A stretch of 64,000 nucleotides of DNA from an uncultured Acidobacteriota bacterium (GCA_963700145.1 OY969474.1:3424001-3488000), one strand, 5' to 3'. Positions 7,296-13,632 are shown, counted from the first letter of the stretch. Numbers and translations: made by a program. Notes: generated from the letters alone by a model not told the origin.

Positions 7296-7775
7296 TTAAC
7301 ACTCAACCGTATACTCACAAGTACAAGATTGAGAACCGAACGGGCTGGAGAGGACAGTGTTCACGCATCTGCCGGTGCCTGAGGCGCAGAGCCACGCAAT
7401 ATTGTCATTGCAGTCGAGCTCGCAACTCGCCCAGTCGCCGCTCGAACAGTACTGCGGGAACGGGTTAATGTCCCACTCGCAGCCCGACAGGGTCGGATTC
7501 GACATGCACTTGCTGTACTTGGGAGTGTTGTTCGGGCACTCCCACTTACAGCAGGCATCGGTGCCGCCGAAGTCCGCGCACGCGCCGCCGGCGTAGCCGT
7601 TGCTCCAGTAGCCGTTGGGGTTGTCTCGACAGAACCTGTCAGCGTTGCGGCAGGATATGTAGCACGTATTGCTACAGAGCTGTGCTTCCGCACCGCCGGC
7701 GCTTACCAACAGAGTCATCGCTGTAAGGATGGTGAGCCTGATGAAGGTTCGCAGCGTTTTGGCTTTTGACCTCAT
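7296..7775 (-). CDS. Secreted cysteine-rich protein (18 Cys)
   Basis: Strong RBS AAGGAGGT; signal peptide ending AEA-Q; 18 Cys in mature part. Confidence 0.8.
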   Translation of the reverse strand: MRSKAKTLRTFIRLTILTAMTLLVSAGGAEAQLCSNTCYISCRNADRFCRDNPNGYWSNGYAGGACADFGGTDACCKWECPNNTPKYSKCMSNPTLSGCEWDINPFPQYCSSGDWASCELDCNDNIAWLCASGTGRCVNTVLSSPFGSQSCTCEYTVEC

Positions 7776-7942: not shown

Positions 7943-8188
7943 ATGCCGAAGCGAGCGCCCCAGGCCGTGTCGAAATCGAGATTCAAGGCGCAGGCGCTGG
8001 AGTACTTCCGCGAGGTCGAGAGGTCCGGCAAGGAGCTGGTCATCACTGACCATGGGCGGCCGGTGCTGAAGGTCGTGCCGTACGCCGAAGACCCGGCCGC
8101 CGCCCTGGAATCGCTGCGCGGCAGCGTGCTGCGTTACGACGACCCGCTCGAGCCGGTGGGCGTCGAAGACTGGGAAGCGTTGCGCTGA
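7943..8188 (+). CDS. Phd/YefM family antitoxin
   Basis: VSKSRFKAQALEYFREVE...LVITDHGRPV; RBS aggag. Confidence 0.9.
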   Translation: MPKRAPQAVSKSRFKAQALEYFREVERSGKELVITDHGRPVLKVVPYAEDPAAALESLRGSVLRYDDPLEPVGVEDWEALR

Positions 8189-8580
8189 TCCTGCTCGATA
8201 CCCATGCCTGGGTTTGGTGGGTCGCCCGCCCCACGCTGCTCTCGCCGGCGGCGCGTCGCAAGATCGAGACCGCGGTCGAGCAGGGCGAGGTCAACGTGTC
8301 GGCGATCAGTTGCTGGGAGGTCTCGCTGCTCGTCCAGCGCGGCAGGCTCGAGCTGGCGATGGCGGTCGAGGAGTGGATCGCGCGCTCGGAGGCGCTTCCG
8401 TTCCTCGAATTCCTGCCGGTGGACCACCGCATCGCCGCGCGAGCGAACAGCCTCCCCGGCAACCTGCACGCCGACCCGGCCGACCGCCTGATCGTCGCCA
8501 CGGCCCTTCTCCACGGCCTGCCGCTGGTCACGAAAGACCGCAGGCTGCGCCGCTTCCCGCACGTCGAGACGGTCTGGTAG
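8185..8580 (+). CDS. vapC: VapC PIN-domain toxin (probable CTG start)
   Basis: Frame begins (L)ILLDTHAWVWW at CTG 8185, then SAISCWE and HADPADRLIVATA...LVTKD. Confidence 0.9.
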   Translation: MILLDTHAWVWWVARPTLLSPAARRKIETAVEQGEVNVSAISCWEVSLLVQRGRLELAMAVEEWIARSEALPFLEFLPVDHRIAARANSLPGNLHADPADRLIVATALLHGLPLVTKDRRLRRFPHVETVW

Positions 8581-8597
8581 CGCGTCGGCTCTCGCCT

Positions 8598-8957
8598 TCA
8601 GATCCGCTCGGGCTCGAAGACGGTCCGCTCGTCGACGACGTTGCCGGTGTTGAGCGTGTTTGCCGGCTCGAAGAGCAGGAGCTCCACCTCCTCGTCGGCG
8701 CAGGGCCGGTGCTCCACGCCGCGCGGCACGACGACCATCTCCCCCGGCCCGAGCACCAGCGTCCCGTCCCGCAGCTCCATCCGCAGCCGCCCCTTGAGCA
8801 CCAGGAACAGCTCGTCCTCGCGCTCGTGATGGTGCCAGACGAACTCTCCCTGGAGCTTGACGAGCTTCACTTCCTGCCCGTTCAGCTCGGCGACGACCTT
8901 CGGGGTCCAGTGCTCGCGGATGAGGCCCAGCTTTTCGGCGAGGTTGACTTTGTCCAT
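8598..8957 (-). CDS. Cupin domain protein
   Basis: EHWTPKVVAELNG...EFVWHHHEREDELF...GVEHRP. Confidence 0.9.
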   Translation of the reverse strand: MDKVNLAEKLGLIREHWTPKVVAELNGQEVKLVKLQGEFVWHHHEREDELFLVLKGRLRMELRDGTLVLGPGEMVVVPRGVEHRPCADEEVELLLFEPANTLNTGNVVDERTVFEPERI

Positions 8958-9066
8958 GGGGACGATGGTACCGTCCATGGTGCTCTCGTTCGACGCGCCG
9001 CGTTGCGATGAGGGCGGTGCGCCGCCGGCAGAGGTCAGATCTCCGCCGGCGGCCGTTGTTTTTAGG

Positions 9067-9444
9067 TCAGGCCGTGGGCGCCGGCGGCGGCCCTTCCGGC
9101 TTGGGCGGCTCCTCCTTCTTGGCCGACCGCTTGCGGCCGCGCGGCAGGAAGCCGAACTCGCGCAGCGTCTGGCTCTTCGGCCCGAAGTGGCCGCGCAGGG
9201 CGCCGTTGAGCTGGCTCCGCAGGTCGATGCCGCGCTGCTGGGAGACGCGGCGCTTCTCGTTGGTCTCGCGCAGCCGCGCCTCGAAGATCTCCGTCTGCGC
9301 CTCGAGGCCGCGCGCCTCGGCGACCCAGGCCTCGAGGTCGGTCTGCAGGACGGTCATGTGGGGCGCGTCGGGGAGACGCCCCTTGAGGTTGGTGGAGAGC
9401 CCGTCGAGAGCGACGAGCAGCTCGGGGTAAGACTCGTGGGCCAT
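9067..9444 (-). CDS. Small helical/coiled-coil hypothetical protein with basic tail
   Basis: 125 aa; RBS AAAGGAG; GHFGPKSQTLREFG motif then RGRKRSAKK. Confidence 0.8.
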   Translation of the reverse strand: MAHESYPELLVALDGLSTNLKGRLPDAPHMTVLQTDLEAWVAEARGLEAQTEIFEARLRETNEKRRVSQQRGIDLRSQLNGALRGHFGPKSQTLREFGFLPRGRKRSAKKEEPPKPEGPPPAPTA

Positions 9445-9488
9445 GGGAAATTCTCCTTTCCGTCAGCGGTCAATGAACGCCGAGTCGG

Positions 9489-10024
9489 GACACGCTCCCG
9501 ATCGACGGGGGAACGCGGGGAAGAAGGTCCGGAAAACGCAGGTGGACGGCCGGAAAGCTCTCGGGTGTCGGGGGAAAGCGGCGGAACAGCGAAGCAACGT
9601 TCTGCGGGCGCGCCGGAGCGCTCTGCGCTGCGCCGGGAGCACGCCGGCGCTCTGTCGGAGCTCGCCGGCGCTCGGGCGAAGGGTTCTGGCGGTGTGCAGG
9701 AGTTGGCAGCGGCCGTCGCGGACCCCGCCGGGAGTCCGCGAGAGGTCGCGCCCGCTCGGCCAGCCGAGTCGTGCGGTCCGCAGGGGCCGGCGCCGCGTCG
9801 CCCGAAAGTGCCCCACGGACCGCCGGAACGCTCCCGCGGCCGCCGGGAGCATTTCCTCGGCGTCCGGGAGATTTCCCGGCCGGCCAAAGAACGCTCCCGG
9901 CCTCTCTGGGAGAATTTCGGGCAGGGTCGGAAAGGCTCTGGCCGGGCGCGGGAGCTTTTCGTCCTGCGCGGGGAGCGTTCCCGGCGTCGTGGGGAGCTCT
10001 CCGGAGCGCTCAGGGAGCTTTTAG
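9489..10024. repeat. 21-bp-period degenerate tandem array (~26 units; core GGA-N4-TCC-like)
   Basis: Cores in register at 9510, 9531, 9552...9825, 9846, 9867, 9888, 9909, 9930, 9951, 9972, 9993, 10014 (e.g. ggaacgctcc, ggagatttcc, ggagcgttcc, ggagctctcc). Confidence 0.8.
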
Positions 10025-10052
10025 CGTTGACATCGACATCTCATGCGGGCTG

Positions 10053-10081
10053 ATTACAGCCTGTTCCTGGATGTATGTCAA
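10053..10081 (-). promoter_or_regulatory. Candidate sigma70 promoter reading into the 21-bp array
   Basis: TTGACA-17 bp-TGTAAT on minus strand; gttgacat/atgtcaac inverted repeat at 10026/10075. Confidence 0.5.
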
Positions 10082-10145
10082 CCAACCGGGCAGACTTCGG
10101 CTGAAACGCAAGCCTTTGCCGTAGATCTCAGCGAGCGGCAGGCTT

Positions 10146-11297
10146 TTAGCGGCCCAGCAGCCCGGCGAGTACTTCGACGCCGCGCTCGACGACGTCCGGC
10201 GGGGAGGCGGTGAAGCAGAGGCGGGCGTGGGTGGGGTAGGGGCCGAAGCTGGGGCCGGGGGCGAGGAAGAGGCCCTGGTCGGCGCAGTCCTCGAGGAAGC
10301 CGTCGAGGCCGCGGGCGTCGAGGCGGTCGGCGACGTCGAGGAAGAGGAAGGTGCTGCCGGCGGGGGGGTCGACGCCGAGGCGCGCGGCCACGCGGGTGCC
10401 GGTCGCGGCGTACTGGTCGCGCGCCGCCGCGGCCCAGGCGTCTCCGGGGCCGGCGAGGGCGCGGAGCGCCGCGAGCTGCGAGGCGGTGGGCGTCGAGTAG
10501 AAGCTGTGGGTGACGACCTTGCGCAGCTCGCCCATGACGGCGCGCGGCCCGACGACGTAGCCGCAGCGGTTCCCCGCCATGCCGTAGGCCTTGGAGAAGG
10601 AGTGGACGGCGAAGGTGCGCTCGGGCGCCAGCGGCCGGCAGTAGGTGTGCTCGCCCGCGAAGACGTAGTCCTCGTAGACGTCGTCGGAGATGATCCACAG
10701 CCCTTCGCTCGCGGCCCAGGCGACGAGCGCTTCGATCCAGGGGCGCGGGATGAGCAGGCCGGTCGGGTTGCTCGGCGTGTTCCAGTAGATGCCGACGACG
10801 CGCGGCGAGAGGTGGCGGCGCACGACCTCGACCGCCGTCTCCGGCGAGTCGGCGGCGCCGAAGAAGGGGACCTCGACCGGGACGCCCTTGAAGGAGCGCA
10901 CGATGCCCGAGATGAGCGGCCAGTGCGGCGCCAGCAGTAGCACCTCCTCGCCCGGCTCGAGGATGGCGCCCGCCACCGCCGCCAAGGCGCCGGTGGCGCC
11001 GGCGGCGATCAGCAGGTCGTCGCGCTCGGTCGCGGCGCCGGTGCGCGCCCGCTGCCGGTCGGCGACGGCGTCGAGGAGCTGCGGGATCCCCTGCGGCGCC
11101 GCGTAGCGGTGCATGCCGGGGTGGTCGGCGACCTTGAGGTCCTCCATCCGGCAGCCCTCGGCCGGCTCCATCCAGGTGTCGCCGACGTGGAGCGGGAAGA
11201 CCTCGCCGCGGTAGCGCGCGGCGCGGTCGGCCAAGGCTGAATACACGGCGCCGGGGATCTCGGCGACCGCGGCGGCGGTGTGGGGCGGGCGCGGCAT
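10146..11297 (-). CDS. PLP-dependent aminotransferase class I/II
   Basis: NTPSNPTG, SDDVY, SFSKAYGMAGNRCG motifs. Confidence 0.9.
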   Translation of the reverse strand: MPRPPHTAAAVAEIPGAVYSALADRAARYRGEVFPLHVGDTWMEPAEGCRMEDLKVADHPGMHRYAAPQGIPQLLDAVADRQRARTGAATERDDLLIAAGATGALAAVAGAILEPGEEVLLLAPHWPLISGIVRSFKGVPVEVPFFGAADSPETAVEVVRRHLSPRVVGIYWNTPSNPTGLLIPRPWIEALVAWAASEGLWIISDDVYEDYVFAGEHTYCRPLAPERTFAVHSFSKAYGMAGNRCGYVVGPRAVMGELRKVVTHSFYSTPTASQLAALRALAGPGDAWAAAARDQYAATGTRVAARLGVDPPAGSTFLFLDVADRLDARGLDGFLEDCADQGLFLAPGPSFGPYPTHARLCFTASPPDVVERGVEVLAGLLGR

Positions 11298-11299
11298 GG

Positions 11300-11689
11300 C
11301 TAGAAGGGGAGGGTACCGGTCGCGAGGCGCCCGAGCCAGATCGCGGCGAGGGCCGCGAGGTTGGCGCCGAGGAGGGGAGGCAGCCACCCCGGCCAGCCGG
11401 GCAGCGGCCGCACGAGGGAGGCGCCCCACGCCAGCCAGACGAGCCCCAGCTGGGCGGCCACGACCGGCGACCAGGGGTGGAGCGCGAGCGCGCCGTGCCA
11501 GTCGCCGCGCGCCAGGTGGGCGAGGGCCCGGGTCATGCCGCAGCCCGGGCAGGGAAGGTTGAAGGAGCGGCGCAGGAAGCAGAAGACCGGCAGGCCGCCG
11601 CCCACCGGCGTCCAGTGGGCGAGGAGGAGGGCGCCGAGCACGCCGGCCAGCCCGGCCGCCCCCCAGGCCAATGCCTTCCCCGCCGTCAC
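11300..11689 (-). CDS. DUF2752 membrane protein
   Basis: C...PCPGCGMTRA motif plus TM helices. Confidence 0.85.
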   Translation of the reverse strand: MTAGKALAWGAAGLAGVLGALLLAHWTPVGGGLPVFCFLRRSFNLPCPGCGMTRALAHLARGDWHGALALHPWSPVVAAQLGLVWLAWGASLVRPLPGWPGWLPPLLGANLAALAAIWLGRLATGTLPF

Positions 11690-11702
11690 GGCACGCCTCG
11701 GC

Positions 11703-11996
11703 TCAGTTCATCCCCTCGAGGATGCCGCCGACGATCGCCATGCCGCCCATGGCGAAGATCCAGAAGAGGCTGAACACCAGGAGCACGGTGCCGATGATCC
11801 CCAGGATCACGCCGGCGGTCGCGAACCCCTGGCCGGCGGCCGGCGACCGCCCCTCGCGGATCGAGCGCTGCTCCTGGTTGCCGAGATACCAGGCGACGGG
11901 CCCCAGGATCTGGCAGCAGACGAAGCTCAGGATGCCCAGGACGAGGGCGGTGACGGCTTGGCTGCTCGGCTTGTCGGGCGCTGCGGTCGTCGCCAT
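11703..11996 (-). CDS. DUF4190 membrane protein
   Basis: AVTALVLGILS...G.G.ATAGVILGIIG. Confidence 0.85.
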   Translation of the reverse strand: MATTAAPDKPSSQAVTALVLGILSFVCCQILGPVAWYLGNQEQRSIREGRSPAAGQGFATAGVILGIIGTVLLVFSLFWIFAMGGMAIVGGILEGMN

Positions 11997-12009
11997 CGCG
12001 CTCTCCTAG

Positions 12010-12441
12010 TTAAAACTTGTCGGCGAGCTGGCTGATGCCCGGGATGATGAAGCGCTGGCCGTTGATCCCCTTGATGATGCAGAGGACGTGGATGACGATC
12101 GCCGCGAGCCCGACGATCGAGCTCGGCCCGGCCCAGAGGCAGCCCAGGCAGCCGCTCGGATCGGCGAAGCCGATGACGTTGGAGAGCAGCGACAGCACGA
12201 TCGAGACGACGATCCAGAAGCCCAGCAGCACGAGCCCGTGCTTGGCGTGCCACTGCACCTCGCGGTCCTCCTTCTCGGAGATCAGCGGGATGAGCGCCAG
12301 GATCCCCAAGTAGGAGAGGATGATCATCAGGCTGCGGTTGGGGCTCACCGTGCCGCCTCCGGCGGGCGGCGGCGTGTACGGCGGCGGCGGGGGCGGTGAG
12401 TACGGCGGGGGCGGGGTGGGCGGAACCGGCGGTTCGGTCAT
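12010..12441 (-). CDS. DUF4870-like membrane protein with Pro-rich N-terminus
   Basis: LSYLGILALIP...VQWHAKHGL; three TM segments; RBS aggaggagg. Confidence 0.8.
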   Translation of the reverse strand: MTEPPVPPTPPPPYSPPPPPPYTPPPAGGGTVSPNRSLMIILSYLGILALIPLISEKEDREVQWHAKHGLVLLGFWIVVSIVLSLLSNVIGFADPSGCLGCLWAGPSSIVGLAAIVIHVLCIIKGINGQRFIIPGISQLADKF

Positions 12442-12495
12442 AGCGGCCTCCTCCTTTCCGTCCTGCGGTCGGGGGTGGATGCGACGGGCCGGAGT

Positions 12496-13632
12496 CTAGC
12501 AGTCGCGCGCGGGGGCGGCGAGGACGCGCTCGTAGATCGCGCGGTAGCGGGCGACGATGGCGTCCTGCGCGAAGACCTCGACCGCGCGCCGGCGGCCGGC
12601 GGCGCCGAAGGCGCGGCGCAGCGGCTCGTCGCGCAGCAGGCGCAGCGTCGCCTCCGCCATGCACTCGACGTCGCCCATCGGGCAGAGGTAGCCGCACTCG
12701 CCGTCCACCACCACCTCCGGGACGCCGCCGACCGCGGTCGCCACGACCGGCACCTCGCAGGCCAGCGCCTCGAGGGCCGCGAGGCCGAACGACTCGCTCT
12801 CCGACGGCAGCAGGAAGACGTCGGCGCCGACCAGCACCTCCTCGATGACCGGGAGGCTGCCGACGAAGGCGATCGAGTCGCAGATGCAGTGCTGGCGGCA
12901 GAGCTGCTCGACCTTGGCGCGGTCGGGGCCGTCGCCGACCATGAGGAGTCGCGCCGGCACCTCGCGCCGCACGCGGCGGAAGACCTCGACCACGTCCTGC
13001 ACCCGCTTGACCGGGCGGAAGTTGGAGACGTGGACCAGGACGTGCTCGCCGGGCTGCGCCCAGCGGCGGGCGCCGGGGCTGTCGCGCACCGCCTCGTAGC
13101 GCGCGGGGTCGATGAAGTTGGGCACGACGTCGATGCCGTTGCGGATGCCCAGCCGGTCGATGGTCACCCGCCGCAGGTCCTCGGAGACCGCGGTCACGGC
13201 GTCGCTCTGCTCGATGCCGAAGCGCGTGGTCTCGACGTAGTTGGGGTCGTTGCCGACGAGCGTGATGTCGGTGCCGTGGAGGGTGGTGACGACCGGCAGC
13301 GGCTGCGGCGCCACGATCTGCCGCGCCAGGACCGCGGAGACGGCGTTAGGGACGGCGTAGTGAACGTGGAGGAGGTCGAGGCGCTGGTGGCGCGTCACCT
13401 CGACCATCTTGGTGGCCAGCGCCAGCGAGTACGGCGGGTACTCGAAGAGCGGGTAGTGCGGCACCACGACCTCGTGGAAGAAAAGGCGCGGGCTGGGCAG
13501 GGCGAGGCGGGTCGGCAGCGCGTAGCTGATGACATGGGCTTCGTCGCCGCCTTCGGCGAGCGCCATCGCAAGCTCGGTCGCCACCACACCCGAGCCGCCG
13601 TAGGTGGGATAGCAGCTGATGCCGACCTTCAC
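12496..13632 (-). CDS. bshA: N-acetyl-alpha-D-glucosaminyl L-malate synthase
   Basis: MKVGISCYPTYGGSGVVATEL, LHVHYAVP, TTLHGTDITLVG, SNFRPVKR. Confidence 0.95.
   Translation of the reverse strand: MKVGISCYPTYGGSGVVATELAMALAEGGDEAHVISYALPTRLALPSPRLFFHEVVVPHYPLFEYPPYSLALATKMVEVTRHQRLDLLHVHYAVPNAVSAVLARQIVAPQPLPVVTTLHGTDITLVGNDPNYVETTRFGIEQSDAVTAVSEDLRRVTIDRLGIRNGIDVVPNFIDPARYEAVRDSPGARRWAQPGEHVLVHVSNFRPVKRVQDVVEVFRRVRREVPARLLMVGDGPDRAKVEQLCRQHCICDSIAFVGSLPVIEEVLVGADVFLLPSESESFGLAALEALACEVPVVATAVGGVPEVVVDGECGYLCPMGDVECMAEATLRLLRDEPLRRAFGAAGRRRAVEVFAQDAIVARYRAIYERVLAAPARDC

Follow-up and report, generated by a model that had tools for sequence, protein, structure and literature searches.

The 64,000-nucleotide stretch analysed here (the window) comprises positions 3424001-3488000 of the single-contig genome of an uncultured Acidobacteriota bacterium (G000; 5.46 Mb, 71.5% G+C). 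On its minus strand, in a slot flanked by an aminotransferase gene and a cupin gene, lies a unit consisting of a promoter-like sequence, an array of short palindromic cores repeated every 21 bp and a gene encoding a small helical protein, followed by a conserved hairpin element (Table 1; positions are window coordinates unless the genome is named). The descriptive finding of this study is robust: the locus belongs to a class of non-coding, helically phased arrays to which a family of small-protein genes is tied.

Table 1. Features of the studied locus, in window coordinates (GC3, G+C content at third codon positions; AF2, AlphaFold2).
Feature	Position	Strand	Basis
Gene for a 125-aa protein of a lineage-specific helical family	9067..9444	-	GC3 0.96, 16 paralogs, codon changes, AF2 model
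Phased non-coding array, 26 x 21 bp, core GGA-N4-TCC	9482..10027	-	Autocorrelation, row stacking, column counts, comparison with genome G215
Putative sigma-70-like promoter TTGACA-17-TGTAAT at the upstream array edge, directed towards the gene	10053..10081	-	Sequence (predicted function)
Shine-Dalgarno sequence AAGGAG, 8 nt before the ATG	9453..9458	-	Sequence and paralog comparison
Conserved downstream element: hairpin 9021-9053 with a 13-bp stem and no U-tract, then the leader to the cupin ATG (8978)	8979..9058	-	Paralog comparison

The array is strongly periodic. Autocorrelation of 9445-10060 gave a peak at lag 21 (z 8.5), accompanied by peaks at lags 42 (z 8.1) and 63 (z 10.2) and by minor ones at lags 10-11. 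When the minus strand was stacked in rows of 21 nt, 26 units fell into a single register running from 10027 to 9482, in agreement with the original prediction of about 26 units in unbroken phase; four units at 9796-9713 are degenerate, and the register stays in phase across them. Column counts over the 26 units also bore out the predicted GGA-N4-TCC cores, with G in 14, G in 20 (G5) and A in 16 (A6) units for the left arm and T in 23 (T11), C in 21 (C12) and C in 23 (C13) units for the right arm. The TCC arm is the stronger of the two, and columns outside the arms stay close to background. No base-pair covariation was seen between the arms: across the 26 units, complementary bases in any two columns were no more frequent than expected from composition. 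Because the units are too diverged, Tandem Repeats Finder (TRF) recovered only two short pieces of the array (9611-9673 and 9843-9880), and an Rfam scan of 8500-10700 returned four chance-level microRNA and small nucleolar RNA rows (E 1.3-8.9, far below gathering scores). Folding of the array RNA was somewhat better than that of shuffled sequences (z -3.4), with a predicted fold that is not a regular row of hairpins.

The possibility raised earlier, in which translation of the array yields a fast-evolving heptad-repeat peptide (seven codons per 21 bp), was refuted, and we regard it as practically impossible. Long open frames do run through the array on either strand, a common occurrence at 71% G+C, but the autocorrelation of 9445-10060 contains no lag-3 signal (z -0.26), an in-frame TGA lies seven codons upstream of the ATG at 9444, and the strong Shine-Dalgarno sequence is placed at the conserved N-terminus of the protein. 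Substitutions in the array relative to G215, a genome of the same genus, were likewise found to follow no codon pattern. Additionally, the arrays upstream of homologs have periods of 20, 21 and 22, and the arrays are therefore non-coding.

The promoter-like sequence was found as originally described, pointing through the array to the gene, with TTGACA at 10081-10076, a 17-nt spacer and TGTAAT at 10058-10053. A consensus promoter scanner did not list it because in that scanner the second base of the -10 hexamer has to be A, whereas here it is G. Both hexamers are identical in the G215 ortholog, in which the spacer and flanks have changed, and in five other stand-alone modules of G000 a promoter of the form TTGACW-17/18-TAnnnT or GATACT likewise marks precisely where the array begins on its upstream side. 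The Shine-Dalgarno sequence recurs as AAGGAG, AGGAG or something very similar in the corresponding position of 14 of the 16 paralogs; it is weak in L001 and absent in L006. A terminator scanner found no terminator-like site on the minus strand of 9445-10027. Two runs of public soil RNA contributed one contig each (9012-9181 and 9036-9277), both covering the 3' part of the gene only and neither reaching the array.

Arrays of this kind are numerous in G000. Among the 3409 non-overlapping repeats identified by TRF in the whole genome, period 21 forms a sharp local peak (413 repeats, with 40 of period 42, 34 of period 63 and 11 of period 84), and 115 of the 198 repeats scoring at least 100 repeat at 21 bp or a multiple of it; a small number among the 115, those of 126 bp, resemble coding repeats. 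A lag-21 detector called 109 arrays totalling 33.6 kb, and a detector for periods 19-23 called 121 arrays, of which 106 have period 21, 15 have period 20 and none has period 19, 22 or 23. The window's own array is too diverged and was missed by both. Three in-phase GGA-N4-TCC sites at period 21 occur 108 times at 18 loci of G000, with no occurrence at periods 17-20 or 22-25. The arrays in this genome represent some 13 or more core families, including GGAAGCTTCC, GGAGATnnATCTCC, CGGATnTATCCG, GGGAAAGCTnTCCC, GGTATCnGCGCnGATACC, GTAC...GTAC, GATCCAnTCGGTTC, CCCAnTCGC..GTACC and GGGGAGCGnTCCCC, with families composed of 2-11 solo members and one gene-linked member; four arrays are paralogous to that of the window (75-79% identity over 370-540 bp). 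About 95 of the 109-121 arrays are solo, with no gene of the small-protein family beside them. Nearly all of the 109 sit between predicted genes in any orientation, even between convergent pairs with 3-50 bp to spare, and some flip to the reverse complement midway. Giant palindromes of 450-530 bp, made of about 11 units followed by about 8-10 reverse-complement units, were observed at G000 2593313-2593775, 2660787-2661303 and 257784-258316. The youngest-looking array (G000 1581767-1582404) consists of 30 near-identical GCTTCCCGnCCGCCTCCGGAA units with a 90% match, in which one column holds all four bases.

Within G000, the association between arrays and the gene family is close. The 700 nt upstream of the gene contain a phased array in all 16 paralogs, ending 0-130 nt before the start codon; the variants among them are one array with a period of about 20, one irregular array of about 21-22 and one with an 84-bp super-period. 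According to the strict detector, an array lies within 150 bp upstream of 12 of the 16 paralogs, compared with 33 among the 3360 other predicted genes (Fisher p 1e-20). A near-identical hairpin element of about 75 nt (fold z -3.7) follows seven of the 16 family genes, that of the window included, despite identities of only 30-60% between the genes. In five or six modules other than the stand-alone ones, a gene of the Pterin_4a/DCoH family (PF01329, E 4e-9 to 2e-16) lies upstream on the same strand, and the array starts immediately behind its stop codon. All nine copies of this DCoH-like family in G000 lie within 114 bp of a phased array and usually end right before it (332737-333147, 2031971-2032600, 3107037-3107252, 3203650-3204072, 4166431-4166631 and four more), some of them being internally shortened to about 70 aa; the DCoH-like protein may be a second array-associated protein. 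Larger cassettes were located in G000 at 3101001-3112000 (L046), 3383001-3393000 (L047) and around 2032990, 3204348 and 3889926, in the order tetratricopeptide repeat protein, XRE helix-turn-helix (HTH) protein, 274-aa protein, DCoH-like gene, array, small protein and genes of 137, 315, 247 and 204 aa. The cassette neighbours of 137, 315, 247, 204 and 274 aa had no match in Pfam, NCBIfam or PADLOC.

The presence of XRE proteins in these cassettes bears on an alternative in which the arrays are operators for another regulator, such as a divergent XRE-type HTH protein, and the small protein is merely the regulated product. In its favour, palindromic cores of 10-18 bp are typical of HTH dimers. 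Eighteen open reading frames (ORFs) match a family profile built from the protein beside L005, six of them no more than about 1.5 kb away from a gene of the small-protein family; the one next to L009 matches HTH_3 (E 4.7e-6). However, no XRE gene adjoins the module of the window or several of the others, solo arrays far outnumber XRE regulators, and the XRE ORFs beside L011 and L013, which are near-identical over the 50 N-terminal residues compared (about E 4e-54 against the profile), accompany different array cores. The operator explanation is therefore considered improbable.

Relatives of the gene extend the association beyond G000. In genomes of three other genera (G041, G153 and G097), 12 of 16 loci have top lags of 20, 21, 22 or multiples of these upstream of the family gene (z at least 3), and the expectation that homologs adjoin arrays was thus borne out both within G000 and outside it. 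In two distant genera, an array was called at four of 20 loci in G204 and five of 20 in G217, compared with eight of 300 random windows; the arrays of G204 contain no GGA-N4-TCC core and use other cores. The gene-plus-array module proposed in the original prediction is therefore a real and repeated unit but not an obligatory one, since about 95 arrays in G000 are solo and only nine of the 40 genes in the distant genera have a clear array. Arrays and family genes also co-occur at the level of whole genomes, as seen with the strict detector in one 400-kb sample from each of G000 and four others. No array was called in G025 (another taxonomic family) or in G224 (same taxonomic family, genus g87), both of which have no family copies, whereas the samples contained one array in G065 (seven family copies), 13 in G000 (16 copies) and 12 in G204 (50 copies). 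In these samples, arrays occurred only in genomes carrying the protein family, which is taken as a lead.

Comparison with two genomes of the same genus, G215 and G222, revealed how the locus evolves. Relative to the ortholog in G215, the gene has nine substitutions and no indels over 378 nt (six synonymous and two non-synonymous codon changes), the array has 71 substitutions and no indels over 546 nt, and the flanking non-coding sequence has 20 substitutions and three indels over 159 aligned nt, giving overall substitution rates of 13% for the array and 12.6% for the flanking non-coding DNA. Within the array, core columns 1-16 account for 42 changes in 416 sites and spacer columns 17-20 and 0 for 29 in 130. 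In G222 (L053, contig C381, about 11573-12564), the aminotransferase-cupin slot is occupied by a different cassette, in which a TTGACG-17-TAGAGT promoter precedes a 21-bp array built on core GGGATCGATCCC and a paralog from a different subfamily, and which is followed by the same downstream hairpin element as the window module; the slot also includes a 17-codon remnant of a DCoH-like gene. The unit therefore turns over as a cassette.

These patterns resemble in part what would be expected of a selfish or near-neutral intergenic satellite, in which slippage or unequal exchange amplifies palindromes that spread between intergenic sites, analogous to repetitive extragenic palindromic (REP) sequences and bacterial interspersed mosaic elements (BIMEs), with the gene as a frequent cassette neighbour. 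The predominance of solo arrays (about 95 of 109) in intergenic sites of all gene orientations, convergent ones included, agrees with this explanation, as do the core families in which one gene-linked member stands among 2-11 solo ones, the four paralogs of the window's array, the swap of cassettes at a single slot in G222, the equal substitution rates of array and flanks, and the existence of very young arrays such as the 30 near-identical units mentioned above. Against it stand the strict period in unrelated core families and a register kept across diverged units with 0 indels. The adjacency to one gene family in 16 of 16 cases, the lack of any Y1/RAYT transposase match in G000, and the lack of both the protein family and arrays (in the 400-kb sample) in G224, a member of the same taxonomic family, also speak against it. 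Overall, the satellite explanation is judged to be unlikely.

The small protein, which the original prediction treated as the product of an orphan gene, was found to belong to a large lineage-specific family. Eleven paralogs were found in G000 by tblastn, and profile iteration converged on 16; an exhaustive metagenome profile search retrieved 1312 clusters at E <=0.001, of which 578 were at E <=1e-10. Named relatives are all hypothetical proteins from Thermoanaerobaculia metagenome bins and have no Pfam domain. A search of the class (E <=0.001) matched seven of 201 genomes, namely G000, all four others of taxonomic family f1 and two marginal ones, and a search of the phylum (E <=1e-5) matched three of 301, namely G000, one more of f1 and one with a weak match containing stops. 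Copy numbers in f1 are 7 in G065, 23 in G215, 25 in G217 and 50 in G204, with at least 21 in each of G041, G097 and G153; genus g87 has no copies in either of its genomes (G224 and G216). Among the genomes searched, the family is essentially confined to one family of Thermoanaerobaculia. Scans of the protein and all 16 paralogs against Pfam, NCBIfam, PHROGs and PADLOC gave no family match and coiled-coil noise only. A Foldseek search of the PDB returned nothing informative, and a wide structure search with VIA-align returned generic helices with all Z below 8; a sequence profile search of the PDB found coiled coils only, and the ESM Atlas yielded only unnamed Acidobacteriota clusters.

The helical, coiled-coil-like character, EFG motif and basic tail that had been described for the protein fit both the AF2 model and the family alignment. 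The motif G-x-(Y/F)-G-x-(K/R)-S..L.EFG..P is conserved in the family, and the tail is basic and proline-rich. From a 16-row alignment, AF2 (predicted local distance difference test score, pLDDT, 86.7; predicted template modelling score 0.54) modelled a helix at residues 6-22, a 60-residue helix at 28-87 and a helix at 92-97, with a low-confidence tail and no strand. The homodimer prediction scored 0.70 compared with 0.00 for the best of three controls, passing a mark attained by 20 of 30 solved homo-pairs and one of 23 single chains; at least 96% of contacts agreed between runs, with pLDDT at least 84. The predicted contacts are antiparallel (47-64, 40-72 and 54-54) with a dyad near residue 54, so that each end of a rod would carry the conserved C-terminal motifs and the tail of one chain. 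The modelling thus supports, rather than establishes, a dimer.

Combined, these results suggest, tentatively and at somewhat less than an even chance, that the arrays form a helically phased DNA-binding lattice of which the small protein, as an antiparallel coiled-coil dimer, is the lineage-specific partner. A period of 21 bp (20-22 in relatives) corresponds to two turns of B-DNA, so that all cores face one side of the duplex, and a dimeric binder would be in keeping with cores that are palindromic yet show no pair covariation. The locus would then be one copy of a multi-copy unit comprising a promoter, a phased palindrome array and a gene for a small helical protein, with the arrays acting as binding lattices at the level of DNA. 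The protein would be a rod-like antiparallel dimer with a conserved motif and a basic tail at each end, lying along the phased face and recognising the spacing and shape of the sites more than the sequence of their cores. With the array situated between the promoter and the Shine-Dalgarno sequence, its occupancy would throttle transcription of the protein's own gene, and the approximately 100 solo arrays may provide additional intergenic landing pads. The analysis demonstrates the periodicity, the tie between gene and array, the non-coding character of the arrays, their co-occurrence with the family across genomes and the exchange of cassettes; that the arrays are bound, that the small protein is what binds them and that it regulates itself are the parts of this scheme that we infer.

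Several observations weigh against this scheme. The pairing of lattice and protein is unproven because similarity among the proteins does not track the core sequences: a Mantel test of protein identity against array 6-mer similarity over 16 modules gave r 0.12 (p 0.22), and paralogs that are 71-76% identical have unrelated cores (array similarity 0.08-0.10). If the protein binds, it must therefore read spacing, shape or the shared GGA...TCC theme. No known DNA-binding fold or family was detected in the small protein by the family and structure searches. Most arrays have no family gene nearby, most family genes in G204 and G217 (31 of 40) have no clear array, and none of the six family loci in G065 has a phased array upstream. 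The substitution constraint on core columns relative to G215 is mild (42/416 vs. 29/130 in the spacers and 20/159 in the flank), and the co-occurrence of arrays and family copies is a lead rather than a statistic because the five genomes compared are kin. Finally, an array lying between a promoter and a gene is necessarily transcribed and would also suit a role in RNA, and the sense strand of the arrays has a slight excess of pyrimidines (negative GC skew in 12 of 16 arrays, negative AT skew in 13 of 16).

A function at the RNA level would make the array a long repetitive 5' leader or intercistronic RNA, acting through protein-binding hairpins, as a sponge or as a precursor cleaved into RNAs of unit length, that controls the small gene in a manner loosely similar to the repeat RNA of type III toxin-antitoxin systems. 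Besides the pyrimidine bias, such a role is consistent with the position of the array between promoter and Shine-Dalgarno sequence in the six stand-alone modules and directly after a same-strand stop codon in five or six others, where it must be co-transcribed with the gene, as well as with the better conservation of the TCC arm than of the GGA arm on the sense strand and with the somewhat better folding than shuffles. On the other hand, the arms lack covariation, hairpins do not form a regular row in the predicted fold, no terminator separates array and gene, and no ToxN/AbiQ-like protein was found. A role in RNA also gives no reason for periods to cluster at 20-22 in unrelated arrays or for solo arrays to lie between convergent genes and in some cases to switch orientation midway. 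A role in DNA, by comparison, is favoured by the 20-22-bp periods in unrelated cores and genera, which fit about 10.5 bp per turn, by a register kept without indels, by palindromic cores whose arms do not covary, and by the occurrence of solo arrays in all transcriptional contexts, some with inverted arms. The original prediction had left both a protein-binding lattice and an RNA leader in play; the evidence leans to DNA, and an RNA-level element is regarded as rather unlikely.

If the lattice reading is carried further, the system might be a lineage-specific, chromatin-like one in which dimers polymerise head-to-tail along the phased face, more than 100 arrays serve as landing pads that insulate or organise intergenic DNA, and 16-50 self-throttled paralogs together with DCoH-like partners act as swappable cassettes. 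This would constitute a new class of DNA-architecture element with its own protein family, an extension that we regard as speculative and unlikely. Should the arrays prove to be protein lattices, this soil lineage would offer more than 100 sequence-diverse, helically phased binding platforms along with an unstudied protein family of 16-50 copies per genome that accompanies them, and would open a new way into the question of how intergenic DNA is organised or insulated in bacteria. If they are instead selfish satellites, the rigid two-turn period shared by unrelated cores and the tight tie to a single gene family would still be uncommon traits among bacterial repeats. The system is compact and testable, consisting of a 125-aa protein and an array of 250-550 bp, and genus g87 (no family copies in G224 and G216, and no arrays in the 400-kb sample of G224) may serve as a natural control.

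Two further features of the window were noted. A cysteine-rich ORF of 159 aa with a signal-peptide-like N-terminus occupies 7296-7775 on the minus strand, in a stretch apparently lower in G+C than its surroundings. The adjacent small ORFs at 7943-8188 and 8296-8580 on the plus strand resemble, by their sequences, an antitoxin and PIN-type toxin pair.

Literature searches at the level of titles and abstract openings returned no account of phased 21-bp arrays from Acidobacteriota or of the small-protein family. The arrays can be compared with known repeat systems. Like REP sequences and BIMEs, the cores are short extragenic palindromes present in many copies, often clustered and usually transcribed with their neighbours. 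The units here differ in being held in rigid direct phase of 21 bp (20-22), in comprising at least 13 unrelated core families as opposed to one or two, and in adjoining a specific family of small-protein genes. The RAYT family of Y1 transposases (PF01797) has no match in G000, while array-free G224 has one. REP sequences are described as imperfect palindromes of 20-40 bp with a conserved GTAG/CGTC head (PMC3733652). In the core family of the window, the units show no column pattern corresponding to this head, and only GGA-N4-TCC is conserved. The arrays share with CRISPR the regular interspersion of palindromic cores with variable sequence between them and the occurrence of orphan arrays far from the associated genes. 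However, the total period is 21 bp with 'spacers' of 7-11 bp, the spacers of young arrays are near-identical and then decay by mutation, and the listed or scanned ORFs near the modules included no cas-like neighbour.

In type III toxin-antitoxin systems, repeat units of about 34-45 nt are present in two to six copies, and a terminator precedes the toxin. The arrangement of promoter, tandem short repeats and protein gene is common to these systems (ToxIN, CptIN and TenpIN) and to the modules described here, which differ in having 10-30 units of 21 nt, no terminator and, for most arrays, no gene. An identity as a ToxN/AbiQ-family endoribonuclease was rejected for the small protein on the basis of no PADLOC or Pfam match and a predicted coiled-coil fold. 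The iterons of theta plasmids (F, P1 incA, R6K and RK2) are direct repeats of about 17-22 bp at a spacing of about two turns, bound on one face by a protein encoded next to them that regulates its own synthesis. Direct repeats in helical phase are thus a shared property, the period here being 21 bp (20-22); the differences are that more than 100 arrays of 10-30 units each, with palindromic cores, are distributed over the chromosome, and that the adjacent 125-aa protein, predicted to be all-helical, has no match to a Rep family in Pfam or NCBIfam. Finally, in parC/ParR (R1 and pSK41) and in the heptad arrays of the omega protein (pSM19035), a small dimeric protein cooperatively coats an upstream array and represses its own promoter. 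A phased repeat array upstream of a gene for a small, here putatively dimeric, protein is the feature in common. No ParM or ParA motor gene was found in the neighbourhood of the locus in the window, and in place of the ribbon-helix-helix fold the AF2 model predicts helices only. The system described here further departs from parC/ParR in that its chromosome carries dozens of arrays and in that the array is located downstream of the promoter.

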